The notes: a model not told the origin generated them from the sequence alone. 32,000 nt of DNA from Promethearchaeota archaeon (GCA_048938295.1 JBHLMI010000019.1:17330-49329), one strand, 5' to 3'. Positions 3,961-19,565 are shown, numbered from the stretch's first letter. Translations and numbers: made by a program.

Positions 3961-5175
3961 TTAGAAGTATACGACATTATACAGGGGGAGAGGTGGGAAC
4001 CACCGTTGAAGTGCATGTCTAGCCCATTCTTCTGTGATTGATAGTTCAGCTTGAAACTCTAATTCCTCTATTGGATGTGTTCCGTAGACTAAGGCTGAGA
4101 GCGCTTGAATGGTAGCTGTTACTACAGGATGCCCTGAGCTTTTAGTTAGTCGTAGGCGTCCCTTTTCTGATTGAAGTGAGAAGATTCCATTGTTCCAGGG
4201 ACAGTTGGCATCTGTGAGTTCGATGGTGACGGTGTCATCTCCAGCACCTGGAAGGTTTTGGACTGCGTTCTTCGCGTCGATGATGCGAACCATCCAAGGA
4301 GTTCTAGCCTGATTAACTTTCAACTGTGCATCTTTGAACCAATGTTCAACCTTGGTATCGAAGGGAGCATGTATGCGGATATTTTGAATTTGGTCCTGGT
4401 GTTGTTTGAAAAAGAAAAAGAGCTTGTCACGAGCTTCTCGAGTTCGCCATAAGAGATCGAGGACATGCATAGTGGAGTGGGTTTCACCTTCGATTTGTAC
4501 TCCTTTAATCCGATACCGGCTTAAAGCTTGGATTTGGCCCTTATATTTGACAAAGACAATGAGACTTTCCTTTGTAAACTGTCTCCACAGAGCATCAGGG
4601 AAGGTTTTGAAAATGAGGTAACCGTGATAGTGTGTAGGACCTATTTCGCAGACAAATTTTAGATATTCTTCTTTGGCATTTCGTGCGCGAACCCTCTCAA
4701 AGGTCCAGTCCAGATTCGGTTGTGTTGCGTCGAATATGTTAAGCTGTTTGAGCGGGGCTTGTACAATATATGCGGTATTTGCTGCAACGTACCCGAATTG
4801 TTCATAGTAGCTTTGTTTAAAGGGATCGAGCATACTGACCGGTTGCCCCTTCTCGTGCATCATCTTGAACCCTTCCTGCATTAATTCCCGCACATATCCC
4901 TTCCGCCGCGCTTCCGGGTATGTTGCAATACCAGCTACCCCTCCACAATCCTTGAGTACACCACGGATTGATTGTTGGAATTCGTGGACGCTTAAAGAGG
5001 AGACCAAGCGCCCTTTTTCAAACAGCCCCAGAGTTTCTTGTTCAATAATGAGATCTAGTTCTTCGCTCTTCTCATCCTGATCTGTCCATTCCGTGTATGC
5101 ATATCGGTAGAGCGCCATGATGGCAGGGCGTTCATTCTTGGTAATTTTCCGAATTTCCTTCATCAGAAGATCCAT
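3961..5175 (-). CDS. Eis-like GNAT acetyltransferase (tandem GNAT plus SCP-2-like C-terminal domain)
   Basis: Acetyl-CoA motif GVAGIATYPEARRKGYVRELM, YYEQFGY, PWMVRIID, D..CPWNNG, and a C-terminal Phe as in Eis proteins; about 400 aa. Confidence 0.85.
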   Translation of the reverse strand: MDLLMKEIRKITKNERPAIMALYRYAYTEWTDQDEKSEELDLIIEQETLGLFEKGRLVSSLSVHEFQQSIRGVLKDCGGVAGIATYPEARRKGYVRELMQEGFKMMHEKGQPVSMLDPFKQSYYEQFGYVAANTAYIVQAPLKQLNIFDATQPNLDWTFERVRARNAKEEYLKFVCEIGPTHYHGYLIFKTFPDALWRQFTKESLIVFVKYKGQIQALSRYRIKGVQIEGETHSTMHVLDLLWRTREARDKLFFFFKQHQDQIQNIRIHAPFDTKVEHWFKDAQLKVNQARTPWMVRIIDAKNAVQNLPGAGDDTVTIELTDANCPWNNGIFSLQSEKGRLRLTKSSGHPVVTATIQALSALVYGTHPIEELEFQAELSITEEWARHALQRWFPPLPLYNVVYF

Positions 5176-5249: not shown

Positions 5250-6230
5250 ATGAAGAAGAAACCAACACTCGTACTTTACCATCCTTTAATGGCTGTTGAG
5301 GGGTATCCGGTACTAGCTGGTCGGGTGCAACCAGCGTTTGAATATTTACGCGACACGGGAACATTGGAGTCTCCTCAGGTTATTGTAGAAGAAGCGCCTA
5401 GAGTAGGTGAGGATTTGCTCCTGCAGGTGCACACCCCTGGTCACATTCAGCATGTTAAAGGATCAGGGTATGATTCTGCTTCGCTCGTGTCAGGTGGATC
5501 CGCGGTGAGAGCAGGTGAAGCGGTTTGGGTTGGTGAAGCAGCGAATGCGTTTGCTTTTACTGGCTGTGCTGGACACCACGCTAGTCGTGATTCATCCTGG
5601 GGTTTTTGCTATTACAACAACTCTGCCCTACTTGTCCGACATTTGCAAAAAGTACATGGAGCCAATCGATTTTTCATCGTTGATACAGACCCCCATCCAG
5701 GGGATGGAACCCGTGACATCCTCGGGAATGATGAGGAAGTATACCATTTAAACTTCGAGGCGAGTTTCCGGGAAAGCCTGGATACGGTGACGCAGCGGCA
5801 TGTGGATGTCCCTTTCCCCAGTTCGAGTAGTGATGACTCCTTTGTAGAAGCTGTGCGTCTCCTAGCGCTGCCCTTGGCACGACGAATCCGTCCTGAGATT
5901 ATTTTTTGGAACATGGGCCATGATGCTCATGCGCTAGACTATGGTGGGTTTAATCTCTCGTTAAGGGCATTTCCCGCTATGACCGAGATACTGCTCCAAG
6001 CTGCAGATGAAGTCTGTGAAGGTCGGTTGGTGGTGCTACTCTCAGGTGGCTCTGAGGTATCTGTGGCAAAGCATGCAATATCTGGTATTGTAAGAAAACT
6101 AGCGGGTCTACCTCAATTGCCTGAAGATGTGCAAGATGAGCCTACGACGGAGTCAGCAGCAACGAAGCGGATGGCAGAAGAGATAATCATGAAAGTACGT
6201 TCCAAACTAGGTCTGGATGAACCCAGCTAG
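5250..6230 (+). CDS. Histone deacetylase-family (Zn-dependent deacylase, AcuC/AphA-like) protein
   Basis: VHT..H, GHHA, GFCYYNN, IVDTDPHPGDGT (metal DxDxH) and GHDAH..D. The terminal motif is LSGGS instead of LEGGY. Confidence 0.88.
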   Translation: MKKKPTLVLYHPLMAVEGYPVLAGRVQPAFEYLRDTGTLESPQVIVEEAPRVGEDLLLQVHTPGHIQHVKGSGYDSASLVSGGSAVRAGEAVWVGEAANAFAFTGCAGHHASRDSSWGFCYYNNSALLVRHLQKVHGANRFFIVDTDPHPGDGTRDILGNDEEVYHLNFEASFRESLDTVTQRHVDVPFPSSSSDDSFVEAVRLLALPLARRIRPEIIFWNMGHDAHALDYGGFNLSLRAFPAMTEILLQAADEVCEGRLVVLLSGGSEVSVAKHAISGIVRKLAGLPQLPEDVQDEPTTESAATKRMAEEIIMKVRSKLGLDEPS

Positions 6231-6604
6231 AAGGAATCCCAGGACAAAAAGGTGAGATAGATGAGGTATTGGAGGTCTTTAAGTTTAGATATGAATCGTC
6301 CTTTGCGCTGCTTTTGCTGGGGATTTGGCGGAGGAGCCTTTTCAGGTTGAGACCGAGTTGATTCCTCTTTCTTAGAGAAAGTTGGTTCAATTGGTGGTGT
6401 GGTGCCAGCCTGTGATTGGGATACTGGTCGAGTCATGAGAGTTTCATTTCGGAAAATTACACTCAACGGATTTGCAGTATCGATTTGTCCATCAGCGAAC
6501 TGAATATCGTTATAGAATTGTTTCCAACGTCGAACGGCGTGTTTAACCCAACTGGGAGCCTTTTTGTGAACCAACCCATCAACTCCAAAAGTGATGCAAG
6601 CCAA
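6227..6604 (-). CDS. Possible hypothetical protein (TTG start, low-complexity C-terminal half)
   Basis: The only long ORF filling the gap after the SMC operon; TTG start 57 bp below the RING gene stop; no motif recognised; may be spurious. Confidence 0.35.
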   Translation of the reverse strand: MACITFGVDGLVHKKAPSWVKHAVRRWKQFYNDIQFADGQIDTANPLSVIFRNETLMTRPVSQSQAGTTPPIEPTFSKKEESTRSQPEKAPPPNPQQKQRKGRFISKLKDLQYLIYLTFLSWDSF

Positions 6605-6661: not shown

Positions 6662-7123
6662 TCAGCTAGTACTGCCAACTTTTTCCCAAGTTTTCCATTT
6701 ACCTTGGGATCGCTGCACTAACACGAGGCCAAAGCGTTGCCAGATTTCTTCTCGGGTGAGAGGTTCTTCGGAGTCCGATTCCATTTGACTTGGGTGGCGT
6801 GGTTTCTCTAAAACAGAAGGTCTAGTATAGAAGAGGGAGTCGATGAGGGCACCCACACGACCTTTCTGATATTGATCTTTGACGAAGATGAGGAGCTGTT
6901 CTGTGGGAATATCGGCCACTTGCAAGGAATGGCGGGCCACTCCTTGGCTAAACGAGGGGCAGACGCCACCCATGGTGTTTTGGACAATTCCAAGACATTG
7001 GGGATCAATGAAAAATTGACAACGTAGACATTGGTGCCATCCCTTCTGGATCGCCTCTTCAAGTGTGATTCGGGTTCCGCAGGCGACACAACTGATGCCA
7101 ACGGTGGAGAGATCAAGTTTCAT
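6662..7123 (-). CDS. RING-like zinc-finger protein (Nse1-type ligand spacing), last clear gene of the SMC operon
   Basis: C-x2-C-x16-C-x2-C-x4-D-x2-C-x11-CP-x8-H. I moved the start from 7207 to the ATG at 7123 (MKLDLS...), which overlaps the KITE gene end by 11 nt; 153 aa. Confidence 0.7.
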   Translation of the reverse strand: MKLDLSTVGISCVACGTRITLEEAIQKGWHQCLRCQFFIDPQCLGIVQNTMGGVCPSFSQGVARHSLQVADIPTEQLLIFVKDQYQKGRVGALIDSLFYTRPSVLEKPRHPSQMESDSEEPLTREEIWQRFGLVLVQRSQGKWKTWEKVGSTS

Positions 7124-7697
7124 TCGCGTCTTCCTCCGAATCAGCTGTGGCTCCTGCGAGATACAGGGTTGCCGCAGTAGCGATGGCTTCACGACGTTCA
7201 GCATCAAATTCTAATTCAAGCCGTGGACCATAAGCAAGGCGTCGTGCAGTTCGCGTAATATAGCCCAGTTCGATTAATCGTCGTAATATGCGATCGAGTT
7301 GGTAGCGGGAGAGGCGCCCGCGGGCTACAAGGATCGTTTCGATGTCTTTTGTGGCTACCTGGCGTGGACGACGGAGTTTACTCACCCGTTCCACAGTGGA
7401 AATGATGACTCCCAATACCGCGTATTCAGGATCGGTGAGTTCGCCAGGTACCCCGTAAATGGTTCGAACACAGTAAAGCGTGTCCCGTCCCATTCGATAT
7501 TCAACCAATTCTAGTCCCAGAGGAGATATCTGTTGGCGGAGTAAATCGAGAAGACGGACTAAGCCAGTCTTGTTGACATGAAGGGCTTCTAAAAGATCTT
7601 GCCGTTTGACCCCGATGCTGAGTTGACCTTCCTCATTTCGAAACCTTGCTGTGAGGGCCGCAAAGAGCTGACCAAGGAGATGACGTTGTTCTATCAC
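7113..7697 (-). CDS. KITE-family tandem winged-helix protein (Nse1/Nse3/ScpB-like SMC accessory subunit)
   Basis: 194 aa, two predicted winged-helix units. LRQQISPLGLELVE, LTDPEYAVLGVII, L..LIELGYI and the C-terminal YGPRLELEF resemble Nse1/MAGE-Nse3 KITE patterns. Lies in an operon with the SMC gene. Confidence 0.7.
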   Translation of the reverse strand: MIEQRHLLGQLFAALTARFRNEEGQLSIGVKRQDLLEALHVNKTGLVRLLDLLRQQISPLGLELVEYRMGRDTLYCVRTIYGVPGELTDPEYAVLGVIISTVERVSKLRRPRQVATKDIETILVARGRLSRYQLDRILRRLIELGYITRTARRLAYGPRLELEFDAERREAIATAATLYLAGATADSEEDANET

Positions 7698-7756
7698 CTC
7701 TTCCTCTGTATCCTTGCTAGTGGAAGAGATAGTGTCAGAAGGTATCGGATCTGAGG

Positions 7757-8548
7757 TTATTGCCGAGGAACCTCCTCATGGTTTTGTGCGGTAATGGCAA
7801 CAGCAGCGAAGGCAGGATTCGATTTAGGCGGAGGGCCTCGAAAAATGATTGCTGTTTTTTCGAAAATTGCAGGGCAGATGTTATCACGAATCATTTGACT
7901 GAGTAGATCGAGTTCCCAATTGGTCAGGATTTCTGATAAGGCTGCATAGTTGAAACGTTTGCCCTGTAGCCGTTTTAAGATAGCCGTCCTTCTAGCGTCA
8001 AGGGCGTCAATGGAGATTTGTTCAAATGAGATACGATGTTTGCGCATAGCCTGTTTATCATCCTGGGTAGGAGCGTGGTCCAATGCGACGGGTGAATCAA
8101 CAGAGGGCAATTCGAATGGTGGGATTGTCCGCTCTTGATTAATTAGAAAGAGTAAGGGAGTCGCGCGCCGTTTAATCTCATTGGCAAACTGAGAAATCCA
8201 TTCTTCGGGAGCAATTTCAGGAGCAGCTAATTGAGAATCTCGGTGATGCTGCATTGAAGCGAGAGTATAGTAGAAACGTCCGTCAAGAGTTCGTTCCCAG
8301 GGCGTTTCGAGGATGCGATATGCATCAGCAACTTCTTCACGGTCAACCTCCGCTTCCTTAATCGGAAACGTGTTGTGCTGTTTTAGGGCAACCTCATACT
8401 TTTTGGTCAAGTTCCATAGTGTAATTACAATCCCTTTGGTTCCAAAGGATGTGAGGCGTGTTCGCTTGTAGTTGTATTGGAAGGTGTCGTACCAGGCTTT
8501 GCGGCGCGGAAAGGCACGGAGAAATGTAGAGGTATCATTGGTAATCAT
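7757..8548 (-). CDS. Putative kleisin (ScpA/Nse4-like)
   Basis: Start overlaps the SMC stop (TAATG). The segment VDREEVADAYRILE...LDGRFYYTLASMQHHRDSQL resembles the archaeal ScpA N-terminal helices. A Pro/acidic linker is followed by a C-terminal winged-helix-like segment (IL..L...FNYAAL...LSQMIRDN). Similarity is weak and judged by eye. Confidence 0.5.
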   Translation of the reverse strand: MITNDTSTFLRAFPRRKAWYDTFQYNYKRTRLTSFGTKGIVITLWNLTKKYEVALKQHNTFPIKEAEVDREEVADAYRILETPWERTLDGRFYYTLASMQHHRDSQLAAPEIAPEEWISQFANEIKRRATPLLFLINQERTIPPFELPSVDSPVALDHAPTQDDKQAMRKHRISFEQISIDALDARRTAILKRLQGKRFNYAALSEILTNWELDLLSQMIRDNICPAIFEKTAIIFRGPPPKSNPAFAAVAITAQNHEEVPRQ

Positions 8549-11442
8549 TAGGCTTTCACCTGTCCTTTGATCAGCACTACGTGATGCATAGTTTCTGGAA
8601 TTTCGAGTCCCACCGTGGAGGGGGCCATTAGAAGAAACTGAGGATGAATTAGTGAGTCTTCCTGGGTTAAATCGAGAGCGCGTTGAACTACACTGAGAAT
8701 AGCTGCTCGGCTTGCTTCATCGAGGCGTTGGGTAAATTCATCAATGACATGGAGGGGACTCTTGGCAAGAGTGTGGAGGGCTAAAATAAAAGTCTGGGTG
8801 GCTAGGACCCGTTCGCCTCCAGACATTTCTTGATAGGTCCGCCAGTCGCCTTTGCGGTTAATGGCAAGTTGAAGGTGCAGCTCCGCACGACTGGGTTCAT
8901 CGGGGAATCGAATAAGCAGTTTGACTTGCTTAAGGAAGTGGCTGAGTAATTGGTTCATGCGGTGGTTGAGGGTTTCAACCGTCTCTTGAAGCTGCCGTCT
9001 CCACTCGAGTAGTCTTCGATCAACGTCTGTCATCAGATTTTCTAAGTGGAGCTGACGTTGTTTTAGGTAGTCTTGGAGTTGGGAGACGACTTTTTCCTGG
9101 TCTTCAAAGGCTTGCCGATCTTCTGCTGTGGCGGTGATAGTATCAATCATCGCTTGGAGTTGGATTTGTTCATCACGAACGGCTGTAGGGTTTCGAACAG
9201 TCTGTGGACGTTCTCCCAGCGCAGTGGCAGCCTTGCGGAAGTCCTTAGTTTGTTTTATGAGATGCTCATATTCATCTTCGCGTTGCTTGAGTTCTGCAAC
9301 GAGGTGGTTGATTTCAACCTGACGACGGGATCGTCGGAGGTCAAGGTTTTGGAGTTGTTCGGATAACTTTTGCTGTCGCGAGTTCAGCGGTGATAAGTCT
9401 GAGCTACATTCTTGATAATCTTGGCTGAGTCTGTCGCATTCAGTTTCCAGTTCAAGAATCTGTTGTTGTAATTCGGCTACGCGGTGTTCAGAACCAGTGA
9501 CCAGGGCTGTTCTTTCCTCATCAGAAAGATGAGATGAGTGGACTTGCTGAAGGTCTTGGAGGGTTGCCCGTAATTGGCTTATTTCAGAATTGATATGCAT
9601 GCGGTCTCGCATTAAGCGAGCTTCTTGTTCCCGAAGTTCACGGAGTTGGATGCGTGTGTCAGCGCCGTCCTGAGCTAGCCCCAAATCTTTGAGTGATACA
9701 TTCAGACTGACCGTAACTGGTCGGGGTGGTCGTGCAAAGGCACCGATCCGGAGATAATGACTCGTTCCTTCGCTAGTGATAATGTTGCCATTGAGTTGCT
9801 GAGAGGCATCGACTAGCGTATTGGGGTCGGCTCCTTCCTCTGCGATGGCAGTGTTTACGACTCGACTTAGGAAACTAATGGCATAGATATCCCCTTCAAT
9901 GAGATCAGCAGCCCACCCAATGACAGGTGAAGAGACCGTGGGGCGATCTCGAGCTATCGCGGTGGTGGGGTTTGTTCGGGCGACCACCAAATCTGGTTTT
10001 TCATTTGGCCAGAGATGATCATAGAGGTTTTTAGCCTCAACGAAGACCTCTCGGTTCAGGGCAATGAATGCATAGGTGTAGCGGCCCAATGCCAGTTTGA
10101 CTGCGGTTTCGTACTGTGCATACTCTGGTTTCATACGAATAAGCGTAAAAAGGGGCCCAATCACTGCATCAGAGAGTGCTAGTTTATCAAGTTCAGACCG
10201 GTAACGAAGACAGGCCCGAAGTATCGTCTCTTCAAAATGTGGATACCGTTGGGGTTGAGTAAAGAGGTGCTCCTCCGTTATGGCAATATCTTGTCGGACC
10301 TGAACAAGTTGATCATCGATACCATCCCGATCCTGTATAATCGTCGCTAATTCTCTCTGAATGTCGTCAATTTTGCTTTTTGCGGGTTTCCGACGTTTGT
10401 TGTACCGTTCTGTTCGAGCTAGCATACCTTTGAGTTCGTTTTCTAGCCCTTGTCGATGACCTTGGGCTTGCATCCTTTCATCGCGTATCGAGTCCATGGT
10501 TGTAAGGAGCTTTTCCCGTTTTGCTTCAATCGCTTCGAAGTTCTCTTTCAGGTTGGCTTTCCTTTCGTCTAACTTAGCCATTTTCTCGTTTTGGTCGGTG
10601 AGTTGGGTTTCAAGGCTGGTAAGTTGCGATTGGAGTTGGCTAGCGAGTTCTTCACGATAAGTCACTTCAGCCCAGGCAGCTTCAACATCGAGATCCTTCT
10701 GCCTTTGTTGGAGTTGCTGTTTTTGCTGAAAAGCTTCATAAGCTGCCTTTAGAACCTGAAGGCGCTGTTCTTCGTGGCGGATTCGGTATTCGAGGGGTTT
10801 GACATTGGCTTTAGCCTGTAATACGAGGAGACGGGCTTCCTCGAGTTTTTCCATCCAGTTGCGGAGCCCAGTTTCGTTCAAGAGAGTCTCGAATTTCCGC
10901 CGTGGGGATTGGGAGGCAAAGTGGTCTAAAGTCTCAGCCTCAGTAACGGCTAGGGGAGAATCCCCAAAGAGTCCAGCCGCTTGAAAGAGTTTCCGAATGT
11001 CCTTCCGAGCAATTTGCTGGCCATTCAGTGAGCGTTTTCCATTCAACCAGTAGGATATCCGGTTCGTTTCATCGACTCGAAGTCGAATCGATACAACATC
11101 CGTATCAAGAAGCGTAGACATGGCAGGATCTGGGCTTCTTAAGACACGTCGACCGTTGAGTTGGTAGTTGTTAAGTTCTAGAATGACTTCAGCATATTTG
11201 TTGAAGCGACCGATGAAGGCCGAATTGCGTTGGCGTTGGGCTCTTCGAGATTCAACGCCAATGGCGAGTAACAGGGCGTCGAGAATCAGGGTTTTTCCGC
11301 TTCCGTTAGAACCTGTAATTAGTATGACAGGGGATTCATCGAGTTGGATTTTGGTGTCACGGTGAATGACAAAGTTCACTAGGCGGATGCTGCGAAACAC
11401 GACTGATGAAGTTGATAGGGACATCTCGTGCCTAGTGGTCAT
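8548..11442 (-). CDS. SMC-family ATPase of the Smc5/6-related type (964 aa)
   Basis: IRLVNFVIH; Walker A GSNGSGKT; long coiled coils flanking a hinge (VIGPLFTLIRMK...YETAVKLALG); signature MSGGER; Walker B/D-loop LHVIDEFTQRLD; terminal QFLLMAP with no His switch, as in Smc5/6 (QFILLTP/QYFFITP). Confidence 0.9.
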   Translation of the reverse strand: MTTRHEMSLSTSSVVFRSIRLVNFVIHRDTKIQLDESPVILITGSNGSGKTLILDALLLAIGVESRRAQRQRNSAFIGRFNKYAEVILELNNYQLNGRRVLRSPDPAMSTLLDTDVVSIRLRVDETNRISYWLNGKRSLNGQQIARKDIRKLFQAAGLFGDSPLAVTEAETLDHFASQSPRRKFETLLNETGLRNWMEKLEEARLLVLQAKANVKPLEYRIRHEEQRLQVLKAAYEAFQQKQQLQQRQKDLDVEAAWAEVTYREELASQLQSQLTSLETQLTDQNEKMAKLDERKANLKENFEAIEAKREKLLTTMDSIRDERMQAQGHRQGLENELKGMLARTERYNKRRKPAKSKIDDIQRELATIIQDRDGIDDQLVQVRQDIAITEEHLFTQPQRYPHFEETILRACLRYRSELDKLALSDAVIGPLFTLIRMKPEYAQYETAVKLALGRYTYAFIALNREVFVEAKNLYDHLWPNEKPDLVVARTNPTTAIARDRPTVSSPVIGWAADLIEGDIYAISFLSRVVNTAIAEEGADPNTLVDASQQLNGNIITSEGTSHYLRIGAFARPPRPVTVSLNVSLKDLGLAQDGADTRIQLRELREQEARLMRDRMHINSEISQLRATLQDLQQVHSSHLSDEERTALVTGSEHRVAELQQQILELETECDRLSQDYQECSSDLSPLNSRQQKLSEQLQNLDLRRSRRQVEINHLVAELKQREDEYEHLIKQTKDFRKAATALGERPQTVRNPTAVRDEQIQLQAMIDTITATAEDRQAFEDQEKVVSQLQDYLKQRQLHLENLMTDVDRRLLEWRRQLQETVETLNHRMNQLLSHFLKQVKLLIRFPDEPSRAELHLQLAINRKGDWRTYQEMSGGERVLATQTFILALHTLAKSPLHVIDEFTQRLDEASRAAILSVVQRALDLTQEDSLIHPQFLLMAPSTVGLEIPETMHHVVLIKGQVKA

Positions 11443-11684
11443 TCTCTCGAGTGCACTCCCGCGGATTATCCTGAGCAGTTGGCATATTCAATATTGCCCA
11501 AGTACAGTAAGTCACAATAATTCGTCACTCTTAAACTTTCACTCCAACCAAAGACGAAGCGCCATTGCTCTGTGATTTTGAGCCGACCTATTCTCTTTCA
11601 TGATTAAAGAAGGACGAGCATGCGTCTAAGATTCGAGTAAAGTTAAAGTGCGTGCTGTGACCTTCCCCTTGTAGGTGAATAGTA
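11443..11684. promoter_or_regulatory. Divergent promoter region between the SMC operon and the Ubl operon
   Basis: 242-bp non-coding gap. TATA-like GTTAAAG at about 11642-11648 and SD GGTGA at 11674-11678 precede the TTG at 11685. On the minus strand, TTTAAG at about 11530-11535 and GGGAG precede the SMC ATG. Confidence 0.5.
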
Positions 11685-12005
11685 TTGAGTAAAGATGAAG
11701 GATTTTGGCGCTCAATCATCGTCGATGTTGAACCCCGTCAAAAGGAATTCCGAATCGGCATTGATGAAGATACCCGTGTCGATGAAGTCATCCGCACTCT
11801 TGTCACCCAGGCCCGTGATGAGGGCGTCAGTATTGACGATTGGGCTAAAGCAAAAATCGGGGACCAGCGTGCAGAATTTGTGCTCATTCGTAAAGCCCCT
11901 GAACCCACCAGGTTAAGCCCAGGTGTAACCTTCGGAGAGCTGGAACCAAAAATCACAGATGATGAGTTCTTCCTCCTCGATGTTGTCCCTGAAGTCGGAC
12001 AATAG
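11685..12005 (+). CDS. Ubiquitin-like (beta-grasp) protein, C-terminus ...VPEVG-Q
   Basis: beta-beta-alpha start (SIIVDVE..KEFRIGIDEDTRVDEVIRTL), later RLSPGVTFGEL..ITDDEFFLLDV matching the Ub/YukD pattern L....TL.D..I.D.D.L.L. First gene before the E2; E1 and JAB genes nearby. Confidence 0.75.
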   Translation: MSKDEGFWRSIIVDVEPRQKEFRIGIDEDTRVDEVIRTLVTQARDEGVSIDDWAKAKIGDQRAEFVLIRKAPEPTRLSPGVTFGELEPKITDDEFFLLDVVPEVGQ

Positions 12006-12056
12006 CAAAAAAGTCTTCACACCTCTGGACGAAAACAGGAACTAAAGGAGATAATC

Positions 12057-12800
12057 ATGATCCGACCAGTATTTTCTACCGAGCTGTTTAACGCCAGAGT
12101 GGAAACCCAGATTCAGACATTCTTTGATACCATGAACAATCTCTTTGGACGACGAGGATGGGATCCAGATCCTCCGCACCGCGAAGATACCGTCTGGAGC
12201 AATCGCGATTTCACCGTTGCTATCATCGATCGATACCGTGATGGGGCGTTTAAACGGATTCGCTTCACTATGCGTTATCTTCCCGGGTTCGTTCGTAAAC
12301 CCAGAAATCTAGAGGATACAAACGCTATACGTTATGAGCATCGGTTTGTCTTTGATTTACCCCGAGAGTATCCTCAGAACATCGGCACTATTCGACCTAT
12401 AGCCGAAACACCTCTGTATCACCCCAGACTAGCGGCTAGTGGAACTGGACATGCCTGCTACTCGGTTCGTGGGGAATTAGATCGTATCCTCGAAGATCTC
12501 CCCTTTTTTGTATTGCTAAAACCAGATCGAGTAGAACCACCATCTCAGTTTCAATCTGACCACGGTCTAAATATGGCCGCTATGGCGTGGTATGAGCAAG
12601 ATACAGATAGAATCGTTGAAACCTTAGATCAGCTCTGGGAAGCCCAGCACAAAGATGGTCCAGCTGCGCCTTCACGACAGGGACGGGTGCGTATTCTTGA
12701 AACCTCATCGACTAGCGGGCATTCAGGTCGAAGGTCACCCCGCGTTTTAGATGAACCAAGTAGACATACATCGGTTCGGATTCTAGATGATGAGAGTTAG
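12057..12800 (+). CDS. E2 ubiquitin-conjugating (UBC-fold) enzyme with a disordered C-terminal tail
   Basis: FVFDLPREYPQ...ETPLYHPRLAASGTGHAC (catalytic Cys134 candidate; HPN changed to HPR), then the DHGLNMAAMAWYEQD helix equivalent to D.PLN.EAA.LY; SD GGAG at 12047-12050. Confidence 0.8.
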   Translation: MIRPVFSTELFNARVETQIQTFFDTMNNLFGRRGWDPDPPHREDTVWSNRDFTVAIIDRYRDGAFKRIRFTMRYLPGFVRKPRNLEDTNAIRYEHRFVFDLPREYPQNIGTIRPIAETPLYHPRLAASGTGHACYSVRGELDRILEDLPFFVLLKPDRVEPPSQFQSDHGLNMAAMAWYEQDTDRIVETLDQLWEAQHKDGPAAPSRQGRVRILETSSTSGHSGRRSPRVLDEPSRHTSVRILDDES

Positions 12801-12814
12801 ATGAGGTACCAACC

Positions 12815-13033
12815 ATGCCGGATTCACCTTTAAAGGAGAATGACACCCCCGACGAGCATGAGGAAGAGCTTGACAAATCATCGAAGGAACCTGAGAGGAA
12901 ATCGCGGATTCAGATTCTCCGAGAGAGAGACATTCCCTTTGAAGAAGAACGTCCTCCCAACTTCTCACCCTACTATTCCATTATAATTCATGGCAAAAAG
13001 AAACGATCTGAGCTAAAGGAGCGAGAGTCATGA
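12815..13033 (+). CDS. Small acidic, probably disordered protein (72 aa)
   Basis: GAGGT site upstream; stop overlaps the next start (ATGA); carries an RIQILRE motif like those in its neighbours. Confidence 0.55.
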   Translation: MPDSPLKENDTPDEHEEELDKSSKEPERKSRIQILRERDIPFEEERPPNFSPYYSIIIHGKKKRSELKERES

Positions 13034-13425
13034 GTGTGCATGGTGCATCCCAAATGCGGTGTGCGGCCTGTGCCACTCAAGTTTCACTTGAAAATGCACG
13101 GAGCCAATGGTGGATTTGCACAGTCTGTGGCAGCTATGTCTGTCCTTCGTGTCGTGCCCTCTTCTTAGAATCAGGGCAAGACACCTGCCCCGGAGCAATT
13201 GTCCGTGGCAGTGAAGCCCACTCTCCCCACTTTACTCGGTTTTTGGGCCCTCGACTGGAATCGGAAAGTCAACCTGCTGAGACACGAAGGCCTGTGAGAA
13301 TATTAGGTGATGTCTCCAGACACTCACCTCAACCACCGGGTGGAAAAGTAGTTATTCTGTCAGATGAAGAGGGAATCGAATCCAGCTCTGAAGCCGACCA
13401 AGTAGGTCGAGATAATGACGAGTAA
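13030..13425 (+). CDS. RING-like zinc-finger protein (putative E3) with a disordered acidic tail
   Basis: C11-x2-C-x15-C-x2-C-x4-C-x2-C-x11-CP-x9-H64; tail contains PVRILGD and KVVILSDEEG; overlaps both neighbouring genes. Confidence 0.75.
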   Translation: MSVHGASQMRCAACATQVSLENARSQWWICTVCGSYVCPSCRALFLESGQDTCPGAIVRGSEAHSPHFTRFLGPRLESESQPAETRRPVRILGDVSRHSPQPPGGKVVILSDEEGIESSSEADQVGRDNDE

Positions 13426-15016
13426 CCTCCCCCTGTCTTTAAAAATCATCGCCCCTACGAGGCAAGATGGTGTTCCTAGAGTTAAAGCCGGTCAACGCAT
13501 TTCTATTCAGTTGCAACGAAAAGGTCAAGCAAAATCGAATATTAAGGTTGACAATGGGGTCGTATACATCAATGATCCCTTCGGGCGCATGGTGAGTAAG
13601 GTCCCTTTTCATTTTGGCAAAACTAATACAGGTGAATTTAGCGTGCCACTGACGGCAAACCTGCTGTCTGGATTCTATACAATTCTCGTTGCTTTGCAGG
13701 AAACCCGCATCAAGCTCGCCGTCGATAAGTATCCCTATCGGGGACCTCCCAACGATCATTATGTCATGGGATGCTTTCTCTTAGAAGGAGGACATCCACC
13801 CATTGTAGTACACAGGGTCAATTATTCGGCGACCGTGAAGAACATTACACGTGCTCGAATCAGCGATGTTCGAGTCATAATCGCTGCTCCACCCTCGCTA
13901 CCTCCTCGACAAACGGTTCTAGATATTAGGTTCTCTCCGAAGGATGGACAACAACAGAATGATACCATCGGAAACCAATGGATTCGATTTCGTCAAGGAA
14001 GCCTTGCTGTGGGAGAATCCTTTACTTGTGGGTACACCGCGCTCATTCGGAATCGCGCACTCCGGTATAATATTCCGCCAGAAACTCACAACTCAACGTT
14101 ACCAGCTAATATCGTCAAGTTCACCCAACCAGAGAATTTCATCGAATCACACCACCACCTCATCAAAGATCTTGCTCGTGATATTGCAAAAAATCATTCA
14201 ACACCAATACAATTTGTACAAGCAGCGATGAGGGTAATTACAAAGAAGATGCGGTATGTTCGTCAAGAGTATGAAAGAGGAGCAGCCTACGCTATCGAAA
14301 AAGGGGTTGGTGATTGCACTGAATATGCCGCTCTATTTGCTGCGTTGTGTCGTGCGAACAAAATCCCAGCCCGATTGGAGGCAGGCTATGCCTTTGATGG
14401 ACAGTCCTGGGAACGCCATGCTTGGAGTGAAATTTGGATTCGGGGCCAATGGATCCCGGTTGATCCAACCTGGCATGGGGCTATGGGATTATTGGGAGTG
14501 ACAAACCGACATATTCCTCTTATCATTGGAAACTGGATGGATACTCGCATCCGCCAAGAATTCAAAGTCAGCTGGTACTCTGATACTGTTGCTCTTGATG
14601 GAAAAAAGGGTGAGCGTTCTGAGCCCAAGATTGAGACGGGGTGGAAGGTGAAACGGGTGGTGGGTGTCCCTGAATCAATTCCTACTCGGTTGAGAGAAGC
14701 CCCCGCAGAATTAGAGGTTAACGTCCCTGATGCTGTCCCACGTGGGAGTACATTGCCCTTGAAGGTCTCATTGATCCCAAAACCGAGTCGTGCCCATCCA
14801 CTAGACCAAATGGTGATGACGGCAACCGTTTCAGATGGCCTCATGGACCAAGTAGTGGCTATTGAACCCTTTGCACCTCGATTAGATTCCCCAGTGAATA
14901 TACGGATGAACCTCCCCATGCCAAATGGGGCCCCTAAAATCACTCTAAATCTCCGCTTATGGGCTGACCAGAAACCCACCGCAACGGTCTGGCAGAAGAC
15001 CATCGGCTTACTTTAA
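13415..15016 (+). CDS. Transglutaminase-like (Cys-His-Asp) protein with Ig/MG2-like flanking domains
   Basis: GDCTEYAALFAALCRA..IPAR (Cys), HAWSEIW (His) and VDPTW (Asp). The N-terminal VYINDPFG...GEFSVPL....SGFYTI resembles a macroglobulin MG2 domain. No obvious signal peptide. Confidence 0.85.
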   Translation: MTSNLPLSLKIIAPTRQDGVPRVKAGQRISIQLQRKGQAKSNIKVDNGVVYINDPFGRMVSKVPFHFGKTNTGEFSVPLTANLLSGFYTILVALQETRIKLAVDKYPYRGPPNDHYVMGCFLLEGGHPPIVVHRVNYSATVKNITRARISDVRVIIAAPPSLPPRQTVLDIRFSPKDGQQQNDTIGNQWIRFRQGSLAVGESFTCGYTALIRNRALRYNIPPETHNSTLPANIVKFTQPENFIESHHHLIKDLARDIAKNHSTPIQFVQAAMRVITKKMRYVRQEYERGAAYAIEKGVGDCTEYAALFAALCRANKIPARLEAGYAFDGQSWERHAWSEIWIRGQWIPVDPTWHGAMGLLGVTNRHIPLIIGNWMDTRIRQEFKVSWYSDTVALDGKKGERSEPKIETGWKVKRVVGVPESIPTRLREAPAELEVNVPDAVPRGSTLPLKVSLIPKPSRAHPLDQMVMTATVSDGLMDQVVAIEPFAPRLDSPVNIRMNLPMPNGAPKITLNLRLWADQKPTATVWQKTIGLL

Positions 15017-15020
15017 CGGG

Positions 15021-15884
15021 TTAGGTATGTTTCCGCTTATCACGACAGAATATTTCTGTACACCGTGGATTTGCCATAATTGGTCCTGTCATGGATTTAT
15101 GCTTGTGTAAGTCGTATTGGATGAACCGACCAAGGGCTGGTTCGAGTCCCTCCTGCCATTGCCCCGTTTGTCGCCATTGCTGTAAACCAGCAAGCATCTT
15201 TGTGGCTTCCCACGACATCACTGCCCCCACAATGGAGGTCACGAAACTAATCATGGGAAAGCGTGGCATGGTGTCAACGAAGAAGGGATCACATCGGGTG
15301 CGTACTTCGTTGGCGATGACATGATCGACGAAGTCTTTACTCCACGAACACACTAAGCACGCTGTCTTAGGTGGCACGAGGACTTCAACAGACACGAAGT
15401 CCTTTCCCATAGCCCCATTTATCACAGGCAAGGGTGACTCTAAGCTGAGATTCTTGGCATTCAATAGATAACGGGCATAATGGTTGTCAACACCGATCAA
15501 CACCAAGTCAACATCCCACACTTTGTCTGGAGCCGCCTGTACCGGTACAGCATGCGGTTCAACCACTGTATCGGTTGCGAGTTCCGGGAGCCGTTCAGCT
15601 ACTGCATCAACTTTGAACTTTTCATCGTGGTCTCCTGGACGAAAGAAGACACAGCGGTTCAAATTGGAGGCTGCTATTTTATCAGGATCCACTAAAACGA
15701 TTTTTCCAACTCCTAACAAGCCCAGGTTCTTACAGACCTCATTTCCGACTGCCCCTGCTCCCACCATCAGCACCGTTGACTGACGAACGGTCTCAAGATT
15801 GGTAGCCCCCAACCAGCGTCGTGTGCGATCATGCTGATCCTTCTCAAAATACTCTAAATCAATCGGTGTGGGTTTCTTCGTCAT
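15021..15884 (-). CDS. E1-like Ubl-activating enzyme (ThiF/MoeB/E1 family)
   Basis: VLMVGAGAVGNEVCKNL, DPDKIAASNLNR, KVD, GVDN..AR, Zn sites CLVC (176/179) and CTEIFC (275/280), catalytic Cys candidate at 198 (VRTRCD). Confidence 0.9.
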   Translation of the reverse strand: MTKKPTPIDLEYFEKDQHDRTRRWLGATNLETVRQSTVLMVGAGAVGNEVCKNLGLLGVGKIVLVDPDKIAASNLNRCVFFRPGDHDEKFKVDAVAERLPELATDTVVEPHAVPVQAAPDKVWDVDLVLIGVDNHYARYLLNAKNLSLESPLPVINGAMGKDFVSVEVLVPPKTACLVCSWSKDFVDHVIANEVRTRCDPFFVDTMPRFPMISFVTSIVGAVMSWEATKMLAGLQQWRQTGQWQEGLEPALGRFIQYDLHKHKSMTGPIMANPRCTEIFCRDKRKHT

Positions 15885-16482
15885 CGTGAGGTTCCTCCTT
15901 ATGGTGTAGCGAGTTATCCTGGAACATTACTTCTCCAGCTGGAACTGATGGATGATAGGTACACCATTGCACTCGTTCTAGCTGTAAGCCGGGCTCATCG
16001 GATCGTGGCCGCAGCATATACACTTTGAAGATCCGGCTGATGGGATCAATCAGGAAGAAGATGTTGCCCTCAGCGCAGAAAGGCGTGTTGAAGAACGTGC
16101 GTAAATCCGTTGAGGAGAACTGCGGATCGCCACCAAAAGGATGGGAGTGCCAGAGGCCGACGACACGAGGAGAATGGGGATTGTTGCCATATCGATCGTG
16201 AAGGGTAAGCCGATATTCGAAGATACCTTCCGGAGTGAACCGGGCATGGGCGATACTGGCTTCTACGTGTCCAGAGGCCCAATCGGTGACACGGATATAC
16301 TTCGCGCCCTGCCATTGTCGACGGAAGCCCAGAATAACGCCCAGGGCTTCACGAGGAGATGTCCCTGTGGCTTCTTTGAGACAATAGTTGAAGATCGCTT
16401 TACAGGTCCTTTCAAAGACGTAGACAGGGAAGACGGTTGGAGTCAATGGTTCTTCTGTGGAATACTGTCCGGGTGTTGTCAT
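15859..16482 (-). CDS. JAB/MPN+ (JAMM) metalloprotease, putative Ubl maturase/deconjugase
   Basis: REALGVILG (catalytic Glu) and VVGLWHSHP...FSSTD (HxH-x-S-x2-D type JAMM motif); overlaps the E1 start by 26 nt. Confidence 0.9.
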   Translation of the reverse strand: MTTPGQYSTEEPLTPTVFPVYVFERTCKAIFNYCLKEATGTSPREALGVILGFRRQWQGAKYIRVTDWASGHVEASIAHARFTPEGIFEYRLTLHDRYGNNPHSPRVVGLWHSHPFGGDPQFSSTDLRTFFNTPFCAEGNIFFLIDPISRIFKVYMLRPRSDEPGLQLERVQWCTYHPSVPAGEVMFQDNSLHHKEEPHDDEETHTD

Positions 16483-16659: not shown

Positions 16660-18129
16660 TTAGTGCAGAGCGTTCATATCACCGAGTCGTGATGACCAGG
16701 GATACCGCTCCATGATATTGTCTAGGAGGCGTCGGAGTTTCTCCACTTCCGAGGTGTCCGCATACACCAGAAATACTACGCGGCCACCACGGCTGCGTTT
16801 CATTTTCTGATAGATCGTTTTCGTCGTGTTGACAGTATCACAGATAATGAGTAGATCGGCATCGGGTAGGTCAAGGTCACGCTCACCGACCGGAGACAAG
16901 ATGACTGCAGCAGGTGGTTTAGCTTGTTTGAATTGTGATAGCACTGCTTGTTTGTCTGAGGTGCGTCCGGTGAGTTGAAAGGTATTTACGCCCTTCATTT
17001 TGAGCAAGCTGTCTATTTCACTGACGACGTTAAGGTATGAGGTGAGGATTACAGTTTTGTCCGCTGTTAATGCAAGCTCTTGGGCTTTCAGGGATTTGGG
17101 AGTGATTTTAGGCCAATCTTGCATCATGCGGTTAACATCGATGTTAGATTTGAGGGTGGGATGGTGGAGGTAGCGGCGGAAGCTTTTGGATGCCATACCG
17201 TACAAGTATTTCCGGGTCATTAGGAGCCCGCTGTATTTTTGAGCGAGGTCTTCTGAGATGGGGAGTTCGTGGAGGATTAAATGGAGAATACGGGTAGATT
17301 CTGGGAGTTCCCCTAACGGCTGACCGGTTTCTTCGCGAACCGTTTGGTGAATTTCTTCCCGAGTGGATTGGATGAGGTCGTCGATGACCAGGGAAGTAGC
17401 TCTAATCACCGGACTGGTGACAGGGGTGGCATTCAGGATGGTGGGTTTGATGAACTCGTCCAAATCAGTGTCGACCAATTCGTTCATACTAATCAGTTCA
17501 ACGTTAGGTAGAAACTCTGCAAGGGTTTGGAGTTCATCACGGATCTGGAGCTGCTCTTGAGCGAACACCACGTGGTCATCGCGAAGGGTGCCACTAAGGC
17601 CAATAATCCAATTGTCTTTAAAGAATTCGAGGAGATAACCCCACGGTTGGATGAGCACCCGGTCTTGTCCAACCCGCCGGAGGATTGTATCGACTTCGTT
17701 GATCATCAAGCCATCAAAGTCTGTTGGCGTCAGATTCCCTTTTTTAAGAATGTTGGCTAGCACGCGGGGAGTACATAAGACTACTCGCGATTCTCGCAGG
17801 AGTTGATTACGACGTGGTCCTTGAATGCTAGGAGCTAGGACACCTAAGCCCTCAACACCACCGTATTCTTTTTCTAGGTATTGGGCAGTTTCTTGGAGCG
17901 AGGATGACGAGTTGACTGTGATGATGAAACGGGTTTGGGGAAATTGCTCGGTGACTAATTTGTAGGTGAGGACGCGTTTGCCCAACCCACAGTCTAACTC
18001 TACCAAGATGTTACGGTTCCGCTTTTCCTTGATTCGTCGGAGAATATATTCTTGATACTGTCGCGTATCAAATCGTTTCGAATCTGTGTCACAGTTGGGG
18101 GGTGGAGAGGGTGGGGGAGACATGTTCAC
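16660..18129 (-). CDS. SF2 helicase-like protein, Hef/FANCM/Mph1-related, with degenerate ATPase motifs
   Basis: RQYQ Q-motif; motif I LDCGLGKR; TPR; motif II INEVD; III LSGT; V PVGERDLDLP; VI QKMKRSRG. No ERCC4 nuclease domain. Confidence 0.7.
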   Translation of the reverse strand: MNMSPPPSPPPNCDTDSKRFDTRQYQEYILRRIKEKRNRNILVELDCGLGKRVLTYKLVTEQFPQTRFIITVNSSSSLQETAQYLEKEYGGVEGLGVLAPSIQGPRRNQLLRESRVVLCTPRVLANILKKGNLTPTDFDGLMINEVDTILRRVGQDRVLIQPWGYLLEFFKDNWIIGLSGTLRDDHVVFAQEQLQIRDELQTLAEFLPNVELISMNELVDTDLDEFIKPTILNATPVTSPVIRATSLVIDDLIQSTREEIHQTVREETGQPLGELPESTRILHLILHELPISEDLAQKYSGLLMTRKYLYGMASKSFRRYLHHPTLKSNIDVNRMMQDWPKITPKSLKAQELALTADKTVILTSYLNVVSEIDSLLKMKGVNTFQLTGRTSDKQAVLSQFKQAKPPAAVILSPVGERDLDLPDADLLIICDTVNTTKTIYQKMKRSRGGRVVFLVYADTSEVEKLRRLLDNIMERYPWSSRLGDMNALH

Positions 18130-18147: not shown

Positions 18148-18825
18148 CTAGATAAGTTGCACAATTCCCTTGAAAGAGTCGAATATACGACTAGCGAAGG
18201 GGGCTAGATCGTCGTTAGTACCAAAGCCAGTGAGAACACCGATTGTAAAGTAGCCAAGGCTTTTTGCGGCCTCCAATTCACCCGCGGAATCGCCGACCAC
18301 CCAGACATCACCTTCGATTTTGACATCTCGAAGGGCTAATCGGATTAGTCCTTGACGGTGTGGGAGATATGGGAATAGGGGGATACGGTCTTTACCCTCG
18401 GCTATCGCCAAGTCACCGCGGGTGAAGATGTCCTCGAACCATTTGTGGAGTCCAAAGCGTCGGATTTCATGGCGGGCTTGAGCACTGTCTTGTCGTGATG
18501 TGATGATACGCATATGTTCAACTTGTGGTTGAAGCTGTTCGAGCACTTCGATGGTACCTGGAATTACGTGAGAGAGTTCAGCATGTGAGAAGAAGAATTC
18601 ACGGAAGCCCATGATGTAGTGGATGAACTCTGATTCGGAGGGCTGTATGTTTAAGCGGTTAAGGAGGTCGCGTGTATCAAAGGAGTACCGATACCAGGTT
18701 CGGATCTGTTCGGTCATTACATCATAACCTATCCGGCGTAGACCGCTAGCGTGAGCGTGGATGGCTCTTTCGCGGGTATCGATAAGGGTGCCATCGAGGT
18801 CGGAGAGGAATGCTTTCAACTTCAT
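18148..18825 (-). CDS. HAD-family hydrolase (phosphoglycolate phosphatase-like)
   Basis: DLDGTL, ITS, VGDS..E and GVLTG. Confidence 0.88.
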   Translation of the reverse strand: MKLKAFLSDLDGTLIDTRERAIHAHASGLRRIGYDVMTEQIRTWYRYSFDTRDLLNRLNIQPSESEFIHYIMGFREFFFSHAELSHVIPGTIEVLEQLQPQVEHMRIITSRQDSAQARHEIRRFGLHKWFEDIFTRGDLAIAEGKDRIPLFPYLPHRQGLIRLALRDVKIEGDVWVVGDSAGELEAAKSLGYFTIGVLTGFGTNDDLAPFASRIFDSFKGIVQLI

Positions 18826-18890
18826 TGTGACTGGTGGGATGGAGGTTTGGTTCGGTTATAAGCTTGACTATGGCAGGAACTGAACACAAG

Positions 18891-19565
18891 CTAGAGAAGG
18901 GTACCGATATCTGCTACCGAATTGAGAATATGGGTGCAGTAAGGGTCCAGGGCTTCGGGCGTGTAGAAGCCGGTCAACACTCCAATCGAGGTATACCCCA
19001 GTCCCTGTGCTGCTTGCATTTCATTGGGTGAATCGCCGAGTACCCAGACATCATCAGTCATTTTAAGGTCAGCAATGGCAAGTTGGATTAAGCGTTGCCG
19101 ATGCTCTAAGAACGGGTAGAGTGGAACTTCTCGGACGCCCTCAGCGCGAGCCAAGTCACCACGGGTAACCACCTGATGATCAAAGAGGGCAGCCAACCCA
19201 AAATGATTGACTTCTTGTCGTGTCTCCTCGACCCACGCCCGTGACGTAATCAGCCGTAAGGCATTGACGCGGGGACGAATTTCCTTGAGGGCTTCAATGA
19301 CTCCGGGAAAGACAAAGGAGTACTGCCAACCTTTGTAAAATTCCTGTTCGATGTGCATGAAATACTGGATAAGGTCTCCTGGTGAAAGCTGGATATCTAA
19401 TCCCCCTAGGAATTGCTCATAATCCATAGTAAATTCTACGAGAGGAACGACCTGCTCAATTGCCACTGTGTATCCGAAATCCGCTAGCGCATTAATCTGT
19501 GCATGGATGAATCGGTCTCGGACATCGAGAAGGGTTCCATCTAAATCTGATACCAAGATTGGCAT
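18891..19565 (-). CDS. HAD-family hydrolase (paralogue of the adjacent HAD)
   Basis: DLDGTL, ITS, LGDS..E and GVLTG; colinear with 18148-18825. Confidence 0.88.
   Translation of the reverse strand: MPILVSDLDGTLLDVRDRFIHAQINALADFGYTVAIEQVVPLVEFTMDYEQFLGGLDIQLSPGDLIQYFMHIEQEFYKGWQYSFVFPGVIEALKEIRPRVNALRLITSRAWVEETRQEVNHFGLAALFDHQVVTRGDLARAEGVREVPLYPFLEHRQRLIQLAIADLKMTDDVWVLGDSPNEMQAAQGLGYTSIGVLTGFYTPEALDPYCTHILNSVADIGTLL

Follow-up and report, generated by a model that had tools for sequence, protein, structure and literature searches.

The window analysed here is a 32,000-nt stretch of DNA from a Promethearchaeota archaeon (GCA_048938295.1 JBHLMI010000019.1:17330-49329; source assembly 2.5 Mb, 91.6% complete). 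Positions 6662-16482 of this window hold eleven genes that place the components of a structural maintenance of chromosomes (SMC) complex beside a ubiquitin-like protein (Ubl) and its conjugation enzymes. An initial annotation had read these genes as an Smc5/6-like operon divergently coupled to a complete Ubl cascade. Open reading frame (ORF) mapping recovered all eleven genes in the arrangement it described: the SMC set on the minus strand, the Ubl set on the plus strand, and the E1 and JAB genes on the minus strand. A 242-bp divergent spacer (11443-11684) separates the SMC and Ubl genes, the E1 gene converges on the transglutaminase gene with 4 bp between their stops, and the start of the E1 gene lies 26 nt inside the JAB gene. 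Pfam recognised SMC_N, Transglut_core, ThiF and Prok-JAB; the remaining genes returned no match in Pfam, NCBIfam or PADLOC, and those without Pfam annotation were assigned via fold, motif or synteny. The host had been called probably Asgard, and this was borne out: 247-aa E2 homologues came from organisms named Promethearchaeota archaeon and Candidatus Hodarchaeota archaeon, and the nearest genomes were those of Candidatus Hermodarchaeota. Judged by these sequence relatives, the host belongs to the Hermod group of Asgard archaea.

The SMC gene (8548-11442, minus strand) encodes an Smc5/6-type, Smc6-like ATPase of 964 residues with a Pfam SMC_N match (6e-22) and a weak hinge match. When an orthologue profile (n = 8, 26-72% identical to the locus SMC) was searched against the PDB, Smc6 was the best match (6e-32, 113.6 bits), with Pyrococcus SMC close behind (4.6e-30, 107 bits), followed by Smc3 (3e-19), Smc4 (3e-18) and Smc5 (6e-13). 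The Smc6 score exceeded those of Smc3 and Smc4 by over 40 bits and also stood well over Smc2, Smc1 and Smc5. The same genome also encodes a canonical SMC of 1187 residues, whose gene precedes those of ScpA and ScpB, both well matched in Pfam. In a PDB search this canonical protein aligned best with Pyrococcus SMC (395 bits), then with Smc2, Smc1, Smc3 and Smc4, and no Smc5/6 appeared among the 60 matches listed. Since a canonical SMC-ScpA-ScpB set is present too, the locus SMC represents a second SMC complex of the genome. The only other SMC_N proteins found there were the ScpAB-linked SMC and one read as Rad50 from its length and the sizes of neighbouring ORFs. The operon carries a single SMC gene and so does not reproduce the Smc5 and Smc6 heterodimer; the protein presumably forms an SMC homodimer.

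Downstream, the kite gene (7113-7697, minus strand) encodes 194 residues. Its AlphaFold2 model (predicted local distance difference test score, pLDDT, 81) adopts a tandem winged-helix fold, and the top matches in a Foldseek search with this model were all kites, namely ScpB, NSE1, MAGE, JetB and MukE. Both winged helices superpose on Nse1/Nse3 at ~3 Å, whereas ScpB and JetB required 5-14 Å to cover both domains. The predicted structure is thus that of an Nse1/Nse3-type kite. The proposed likeness to Smc5/6 is supported by these comparisons, in which the locus SMC profile scored best on Smc6, the ScpAB-linked SMC on Smc1-4 and the kite on Nse1/Nse3.

Between the SMC and kite genes lies a gene for 263 residues (7757-8548, minus strand; 1-nt overlap with the SMC gene), which occupies this place in every locus surveyed. 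The protein returned no match in Pfam or in a profile search against the PDB, and its position suggests a putative kleisin. Of the bracketed kleisin in the initial annotation, the constant place between SMC and kite therefore stood, while similarity to kleisin sequences was not found. In Pfam scans, which covered the genes of this locus, no Nse2/Mms21 SP-RING and no Nse5 or Nse6 domain appeared.

The last gene of the SMC operon (6662-7123, minus strand; 11-nt overlap with the kite gene) encodes a zinc-finger protein and candidate fourth subunit. Its start is the ATG at 7123, which is shared by every orthologue and gives a protein of 153 residues; a 181-aa ORF beginning at a TTG gained no support from the orthologues and was discarded. 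Alignments revealed an N-terminal cross-brace finger of the form C-x2-C-x16-C-x2-C-x4-(C/D)-x2-C-x11-CP-x9-H, with eight conserved ligands in PHD/C4HC3-type spacing, followed by a conserved C-terminal domain. The Nse1 RING-like domain has PHD-type ligand spacing as well. Pfam gave only sub-threshold matches for the 153-aa protein, to C1, RING, FYVE and IBR, and a search of the zinc-finger profile against the PDB gave only insignificant ones (E 0.35 or higher), RNF4 and NOT4 chains included. A prediction of the kite in complex with this protein scored 0.02, which is evidence neither for nor against an interaction. The finger gene lies directly 3' of the kite gene in 6/6 Asgard families examined, with or without a Ubl module.

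A second zinc-finger protein (13030-13425, plus strand; 131 aa) is encoded within the Ubl operon and carries a disordered VRIL/VVIL tail. Alignment identified it as a paralogue of the SMC-operon finger with a common Cys/His ligand pattern, and its Pfam matches were weak (zf-UDP, FYVE and RING-like). Its gene adjoins the transglutaminase gene in both the Hermod and the Heimdall loci. The two genes had been labelled RING at the outset. The ligand pattern of a cross-brace zinc finger is present in both, but neither a RING nor an Nse1 RING model matched above threshold, and E3 ligase activity is at this stage a suggestion from ligand pattern and gene context.

The Ubl gene opens the plus-strand operon (11685-12005; 106 aa, C-terminus PEVG-Q) and is the best-conserved gene of the locus, at 85-98% identity within its family compared with 58-93% for the SMC. 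Neither ubiquitin nor any other Pfam family matched it; language-model look-alikes were all beta-grasp domains (scores 0.78-0.89). At its C-terminus, Val-Gly is invariant, and the tail after it varies from nothing to two residues (I, IK, D or F in relatives, Q in the present sequence). Such a variable tail after Val-Gly is the pattern expected of a processed Ubl precursor. We also considered the terminal Gln as a transglutaminase acyl donor and rejected this, as the residue after the Gly varies or is absent even within a genus.

The E2 (12057-12800, plus strand; 247 aa) was assigned from fold and motif, the Pfam UQ_con model giving no match. In its AlphaFold2 model the core has a pLDDT above 90, and the top 50 PDB and top 30 Swiss-Prot fold matches were all E2 enzymes, canonical ubiquitin-conjugating enzymes. 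Residues H122-P123-R124 and C134 are invariant across 16 sequences and correspond to the HPN-plus-cysteine signature. A disordered tail with repeated VRIL motifs follows. Repeats of the form [VI]-[RKQ]-I-[LI] extend over window positions 12687-13371 and occur in the E2 tail, in a small charged protein encoded after the E2 gene (12815-13033, plus strand; 72 aa, IQIL motif) and in the second finger, often with Gly or Arg on the N-terminal side and acidic residues on the other. The E2-tail motif is kept as far as Heimdall, where GGVRII stands at the C-terminus. The 72-aa protein has no family match; its gene follows the E2 gene in Hermod and Heimdall loci and in some Planctomycetota loci.

The remaining enzymes of the cascade retain their catalytic residues. 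The E1 activating enzyme (15021-15884, minus strand; 287 aa) consists of a single ThiF domain (Pfam ThiF 6e-35), and its nearest solved relatives were the active adenylation domains of UBA6 (7e-20), Uba1 and UBA3, with ThiF and UBA5 behind (UBA6 74.7 bits, UBA5 42.9). The GxGxxG motif, the zinc cysteines C176/C179/C275/C280 and C198 are each kept in at least 90% of 15 sequences. In the JAMM/JAB metallopeptidase (15859-16482, minus strand; 207 aa, Pfam Prok-JAB 4.9e-9), E45, H112-S113-H114, S123 and D126 are kept in at least 90% of 14 sequences, leaving the JAMM motif intact. The transglutaminase-fold cysteine enzyme (13415-15016, plus strand; 533 aa, Pfam Transglut_core 2.9e-24) keeps C301, H335 and D350 in at least 90% of 11 sequences; no N-terminal hydrophobic stretch was apparent by eye, and its gene is linked to Ubl-E2 in four Asgard families. 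The Ubl cascade of the initial annotation is thereby corroborated by an E1, an E2 fold with its catalytic cysteine, a Ubl with a conserved terminal Gly and an intact JAMM motif.

The genome encodes a further set of such enzymes on another contig (C53:3704-7071), where two UQ_con E2 genes (1.8e-32 and 4.9e-15) lie beside a 354-aa E1. Because this canonical E2 and E1 cluster is present, the cascade of the locus is an additional, dedicated system. The Val-Gly ending of the Ubl is reminiscent of UFM1. Identification as a UFM1 system was rejected: there was no Ufm1 or UFC1 Pfam match, the E1 is nearer to UBA6 than to UBA5, and the E2 fold is that of canonical ubiquitin-conjugating enzymes. Ufm1 homologues have been reported in Asgard archaea (PMC12962969).

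The association of the two gene sets was surveyed in 400 Asgard genomes and in Planctomycetota. At least 15 Hermodarchaeota contigs carry the cluster in the same order; all eleven genes are present in the 11 that span both flanks, with the same neighbours (a histone-deacetylase-family gene and a helicase gene) in 11/11, and the E2 is found in 18/18 related Hermodarchaeota genomes. In Candidatus Asgardarchaeum abyssi the genes are divided between contigs, one with SMC-kleisin-kite-zinc finger-JAB-E1 and the other with Ubl-E2-small gene-transglutaminase; the enzymes needed by the Ubl have therefore stayed with the SMC operon. A Heimdall family carries a co-directional SMC-kleisin-kite-zinc finger-JAB-E1-Ubl-E2-small gene array in 10/12 genomes, with the second finger and transglutaminase 6 kb downstream, beyond an insert of histidine-metabolism genes. 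In the region L024:11201-17250 the interruption consists of a pair of aromatic amino-acid (histidine) ammonia-lyase genes, one CBS gene and a gene for histidyl-tRNA synthetase.

The E2 family is also carried by metagenome-assembled genomes (MAGs) of Planctomycetota. One contig (L082) holds the full eight-gene co-directional array SMC-kleisin-kite-zinc finger-JAB-E1-Ubl-E2, not far from a bacterial gene for DNA polymerase III delta. Where Ubl-E2 is unlinked in Planctomycetota, the kite was found elsewhere in 4/5 genomes, and some members have a three-gene SMC-kleisin-kite operon that lacks the zinc finger yet do have Ubl-E2. JAB directly follows the SMC-operon finger gene in Asgardarchaeum, Heimdall and Planctomycetota. 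In an SMC tree the Planctomycetota protein grouped with the Heimdall family of the same gene order (support 91/88), in a tree whose backbone was not resolved. In one Planctomycetota relative of 65% GC content, Ubl and E2 are naturally fused in a plain 299-aa ORF that has no A-run (L077:3367-4264); such a fusion would need cleavage after the Gly.

A related arrangement was seen in seven further Planctomycetota loci (L070, L071, L072, L074, L076, L079 and L082; e.g. L071:9582-10531). Here the Ubl frame continues past Val-Val-Gly into the E2 N-terminal helix and breaks at a run of A9-A10. One extra A, through transcriptional slippage, or a -1 ribosomal shift would yield a Ubl-E2 fusion of 292-322 residues with the HPR motif, which makes the run a candidate site of programmed slippage.

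The linkage is thus kept in three gene orders and across 28-31% SMC identity. Of the 400 Asgard genomes, 32 (4 families) contained the E2 and 64 (9 families, the E2's four among them) the kite, and no sampled family had the E2 only. The initial annotation had reckoned with the two operons proving unlinked, with independent phyletic patterns, in related genomes; the survey instead found the linkage preserved and the distributions nested. Since the association is kept within one family and recurs, rearranged, in other families as well as in a second domain, it exceeds chance.

From these observations we propose, with a probability of roughly 0.6, that the locus encodes two cooperating modules: an Smc5/6-type SMC complex and a private Ubl conjugation system. 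The first module would comprise an SMC homodimer, the kleisin, the Nse1/Nse3-like kite and a fourth subunit bearing the RING/PHD-like cross-brace zinc finger. The second would operate separately from the canonical Asgard ubiquitin cluster of the same genome. In the proposed sequence of events, the JAMM peptidase would trim the Ubl precursor after the invariant Val-Gly; the mature Ubl would be adenylated and taken up by the E1, probably at Cys198, and passed to Cys134 of the E2. The finger bound to the SMC complex, its free paralogue, or both, would bring the charged E2 to the DNA-loaded complex, where the Ubl would be joined to SMC subunits or to proteins on captured DNA. Removal may fall to the JAMM peptidase and perhaps also to the transglutaminase-fold cysteine enzyme. 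The VRIL-type repeats of the E2 tail, the 72-aa protein and the second finger may hold the Ubl non-covalently, as SUMO-interacting motifs hold SUMO. The outcome could be genome maintenance, foreign-DNA control, or both.

Several results weigh against this proposal. No RING model scored above threshold for either zinc finger, and the Nse1 RING model (zf-RING-like, PF08746) missed both even at E up to 10. (Elsewhere in the genome, PF08746 gave a borderline match to a 59-aa ORF at contig C8:27237-27347, 26 bits against a cut-off of 26.6.) The Nse1 and Nse3 Pfam models likewise failed to match the kite, and the kite profile found nothing significant in the PDB. A HMMER search with that profile over 1.84 billion representatives returned just 60 clusters, and none of ten kite matches scanned had an above-threshold Nse1 or MAGE family. 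The 263-aa protein could not be related to ScpA or to any kleisin of solved structure, and hhalign against an Asgard ScpA alignment gave a probability of 0.4%. No RNA run was listed for the locus, most of which is contained in sediment metagenome DNA runs alone.

The survey itself supplied a further objection. Three Asgard families, f4 (kite in 28/31 genomes), f17 and f18, keep SMC-kleisin-kite-zinc finger, and the E2 protein search of the 400 genomes gave no match in any of them, f17 having been searched with a single E2 protein only. E2 and Ubl profiles were likewise empty in four f4 genomes (two complete, two near-complete) and in one f18 genome. These families show the SMC module alone, and the SMC complex with its finger can therefore work without the Ubl system. 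Given that the finger persists where the Ubl system was undetected, we regard the 153-aa protein as first of all a subunit of the SMC complex, with an E3 role that is hypothetical. A transglutaminase gene does lie 6-8 kb away from the SMC operon of f4; unrelated transporter genes intervene, and we consider its proximity incidental.

A less probable alternative, though the strongest of those considered, is that the locus serves chiefly against plasmids or viruses, with a Wadjet-like SMC sensor of foreign DNA and a Ubl effector of the Bil or CBASS kind, which would act by tagging proteins of the invader or by triggering a response. Restriction of extrachromosomal DNA is an established function of both Smc5/6 and Wadjet, and in Bil systems a Ubl is attached to phage proteins. 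In Wadjet (JetABCD) and MksBEF the SMC, kleisin and kite architecture is the same, and the kite fold resembles JetB and MukE. Similarly, Bil (ISG15-like) and CBASS Cap2/Cap3 share with the locus a compact prokaryotic set of Ubl, E2, E1 and JAB, and a precursor or fusion requiring JAB cleavage. The occurrence of the cassette in two domains, together with the grouping of Planctomycetota and Heimdall SMC proteins (91/88), suggests horizontal transfer, and the distribution within Asgard archaea is patchy (64/400 genomes). PADLOC also matched the SMC weakly to LmuB and JetC, and the E1 weakly to CBASS E1-E2 and BilD.

Other results are less favourable to a defence role. The JetC match was partial (1e-12) and confined to the Walker A stretch; the E1 matches were weak (CBASS E1-E2 8e-16, BilD 1.2e-7) and that of the JAB weak and partial, and PADLOC returned nothing for the kleisin, kite, zinc fingers, Ubl or E2. 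The arrangement of the kite domains is closer to Nse1/Nse3 than to JetB. Moreover, the locus contains no JetD/MksG Toprim nuclease, no cyclase and no other defence partner, and no JetD-type nuclease or other effector was found in the operons. The constancy of the E2 (18/18 related genomes) and of the flanking genes (11/11 loci that span both flanks) in Hermodarchaeota is also unlike a defence island. The defence explanation is nonetheless compatible with two cooperating modules because eukaryotic Smc5/6 does both jobs.

More doubtful is a scheme in which the Ubl regulates the SMC complex only, for example its turnover or unloading, while the fingers are structural or DNA-binding and the E2 acts without an E3. 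Retention of the finger subunit in lineages without a detected Ubl or E2 fits this scheme, as do the want of an above-threshold RING match and the Planctomycetota whose SMC-kleisin-kite operon has no finger in spite of Ubl-E2. It sits poorly with the paralogous finger inside the Ubl operon, beside the E2 in Hermod and beside the transglutaminase in Heimdall, and with the placement of JAB-E1 directly 3' of the finger gene in three lineages. Finally, that the genes are unrelated neighbours, or that a ThiF enzyme serves a sulphur carrier of the ThiS/MoaD type, is very improbable: chance proximity is largely refuted by the synteny survey, with linkage kept over three rearrangements and across domains, and although the E1 consists of no more than one ThiF domain and the Ubl ends in one Gly without a Pfam match, the invariant E2 cysteine, JAMM peptidase, precursor tails and natural Ubl-E2 fusion speak for protein conjugation, and the E1 is nearer to UBA6/Uba1 than to ThiF.

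Two cooperating modules being the preferred interpretation, we compared the locus with the systems that it most resembles. The eukaryotic Smc5/6 holocomplex consists of Smc5, Smc6, the Nse4 kleisin, the Nse1 and Nse3 kites, the Nse1 RING and the Nse2 SUMO ligase. The locus is like it in the preference of the SMC profile for Smc6, in the ~3 Å superposition of the kite on Nse1/Nse3, in its genetic coupling to Ubl ligation and in the PHD-type-spaced finger encoded directly 3' of the kite. Conversely, it has one SMC gene, its finger stands as a protein of its own and is recognised by neither the Nse1 RING nor the Nse1 Pfam model, and Pfam scans found none of the Nse2, Nse5 or Nse6 domains among its genes. 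The locus also brings its own Ubl, E1, E2 and peptidase, whereas eukaryotic Smc5/6 draws on the general SUMO/ubiquitin system of the cell. With a single SMC, no Nse2, failed Nse1 sequence models and a putative kleisin, the locus falls outside the strict Smc5/6 holocomplex and is best classed as a complex of Smc5/6 type whose private Ubl system is encoded in operons alongside it.

Ubiquitin operons of the Caldiarchaeum/Asgard type encode ubiquitin, E1, E2, a small RING finger and an Rpn11-like JAB. The same five roles are brought together here, and the locus E1 has its nearest relatives among the adenylation domains of eukaryotic E1 enzymes. In contrast to those operons, the Ubl and E2 miss the ubiquitin and UQ_con models, and a transglutaminase-fold enzyme and the tie to an SMC operon are added. 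Van Hooff et al. (bioRxiv 10.1101/2024.01.07.573240) have reported archaeal SMC5/6-related operons that comprise an SMC, an Nse4-like kleisin and an Nse1/3-like kite. The present locus similarly provides a second SMC-kleisin-kite set beside canonical SMC-ScpA-ScpB, a likeness that does not establish that the families are the same. That study holds that the Nse1 RING arose in eukaryotes and that archaeal kites lack it (10.1101/2024.01.07.573240), and it mentions neither the fourth, zinc-finger gene nor the linkage to a Ubl system that distinguish the locus from its account (10.1101/2024.01.07.573240).

Alignment of nine Hermodarchaeota spacers showed that the divergent spacer holds conserved blocks: CTCTTAAACTTTCAC at 11528-11542, which reads GTGAAAGTTTAAGAG in the SMC direction; TAAAGTTAAAGTG at 11638-11650, 35-47 nt 5' of the Ubl start; and AGGTGA at 11673-11678. 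These may be promoter and ribosome-binding-site elements.

The flanks of the locus were also inspected. A superfamily-2 helicase of 489 residues (16660-18129, minus strand; ResIII, Helicase_C and a weak XPB/Rad25 C-terminal match) lies upstream of JAB-E1 in those Hermodarchaeota loci that reach this flank. A homologue, 32% identical, is encoded ~6 kb from the Asgardarchaeum SMC operon; none was found near the Heimdall array. Beyond the helicase gene are two adjacent paralogues of the HAD hydrolase family (18148-19565, minus strand; 225 and 224 aa, phmmer 2e-57). At the other flank, the end of the histone-deacetylase-family gene (5250-6230) adjoins the zinc-finger gene in the 11 flank-reaching Hermodarchaeota loci. 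Between these two genes, a 125-aa ORF (6227-6604, minus strand) is rich in Pro, Gln and Lys, has no family match and may be no gene. A GNAT/SCP2 acetyltransferase gene (3961-5175) stands beyond the deacetylase here and in one related locus (L017), and in another MAG (G027) a GNAT gene is directly upstream of the SMC gene.

The initial annotation knew of no description of archaeal Smc5/6 relatives and Asgard ubiquitin genes as one locus. Within the literature covered (full text; most subscription journals lay outside coverage), no paper was found that ties the two together in archaea or Planctomycetota. The present locus adds the Hermod layout, an Asgardarchaeum layout in which the genes are split, a nested distribution, the evidence from precursor tails and the integration of a second finger and a transglutaminase. 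The system is a compact, eleven-gene prokaryotic version in which every part is small enough for reconstitution, and the Ubl precursor tails, E2 Cys134 and the two paralogous zinc fingers provide testable handles. Its occurrence in Planctomycetota may offer a genetically tractable host, and raises the question of genome maintenance versus foreign-DNA control.

To our knowledge, Smc5/6 is alone among eukaryotic SMC complexes in carrying both ubiquitin and SUMO ligases. Because the pairing has outlasted gene reshuffling in other Asgard lineages and in part of the Planctomycetota, the connection of eukaryotic Smc5/6 with ubiquitin or SUMO may be older than eukaryotes themselves. More tentatively, and with less confidence than we attach to the two-module proposal, the Asgard kite and the finger gene that follows it could be the unfused ancestor of eukaryotic Nse1, with Smc5/6-Ubl coupling already operon-encoded in the archaeal lineage leading to eukaryotes. 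The locus is at odds with the published view of the E3 link as a eukaryotic novelty. Were the unfused ancestor real, the Smc5/6 RING and its Ubl link would have been inherited rather than invented by eukaryotes. The locus thus bears on why Smc5/6 carries Ubl ligases, and on the ancestral function of Smc5/6.

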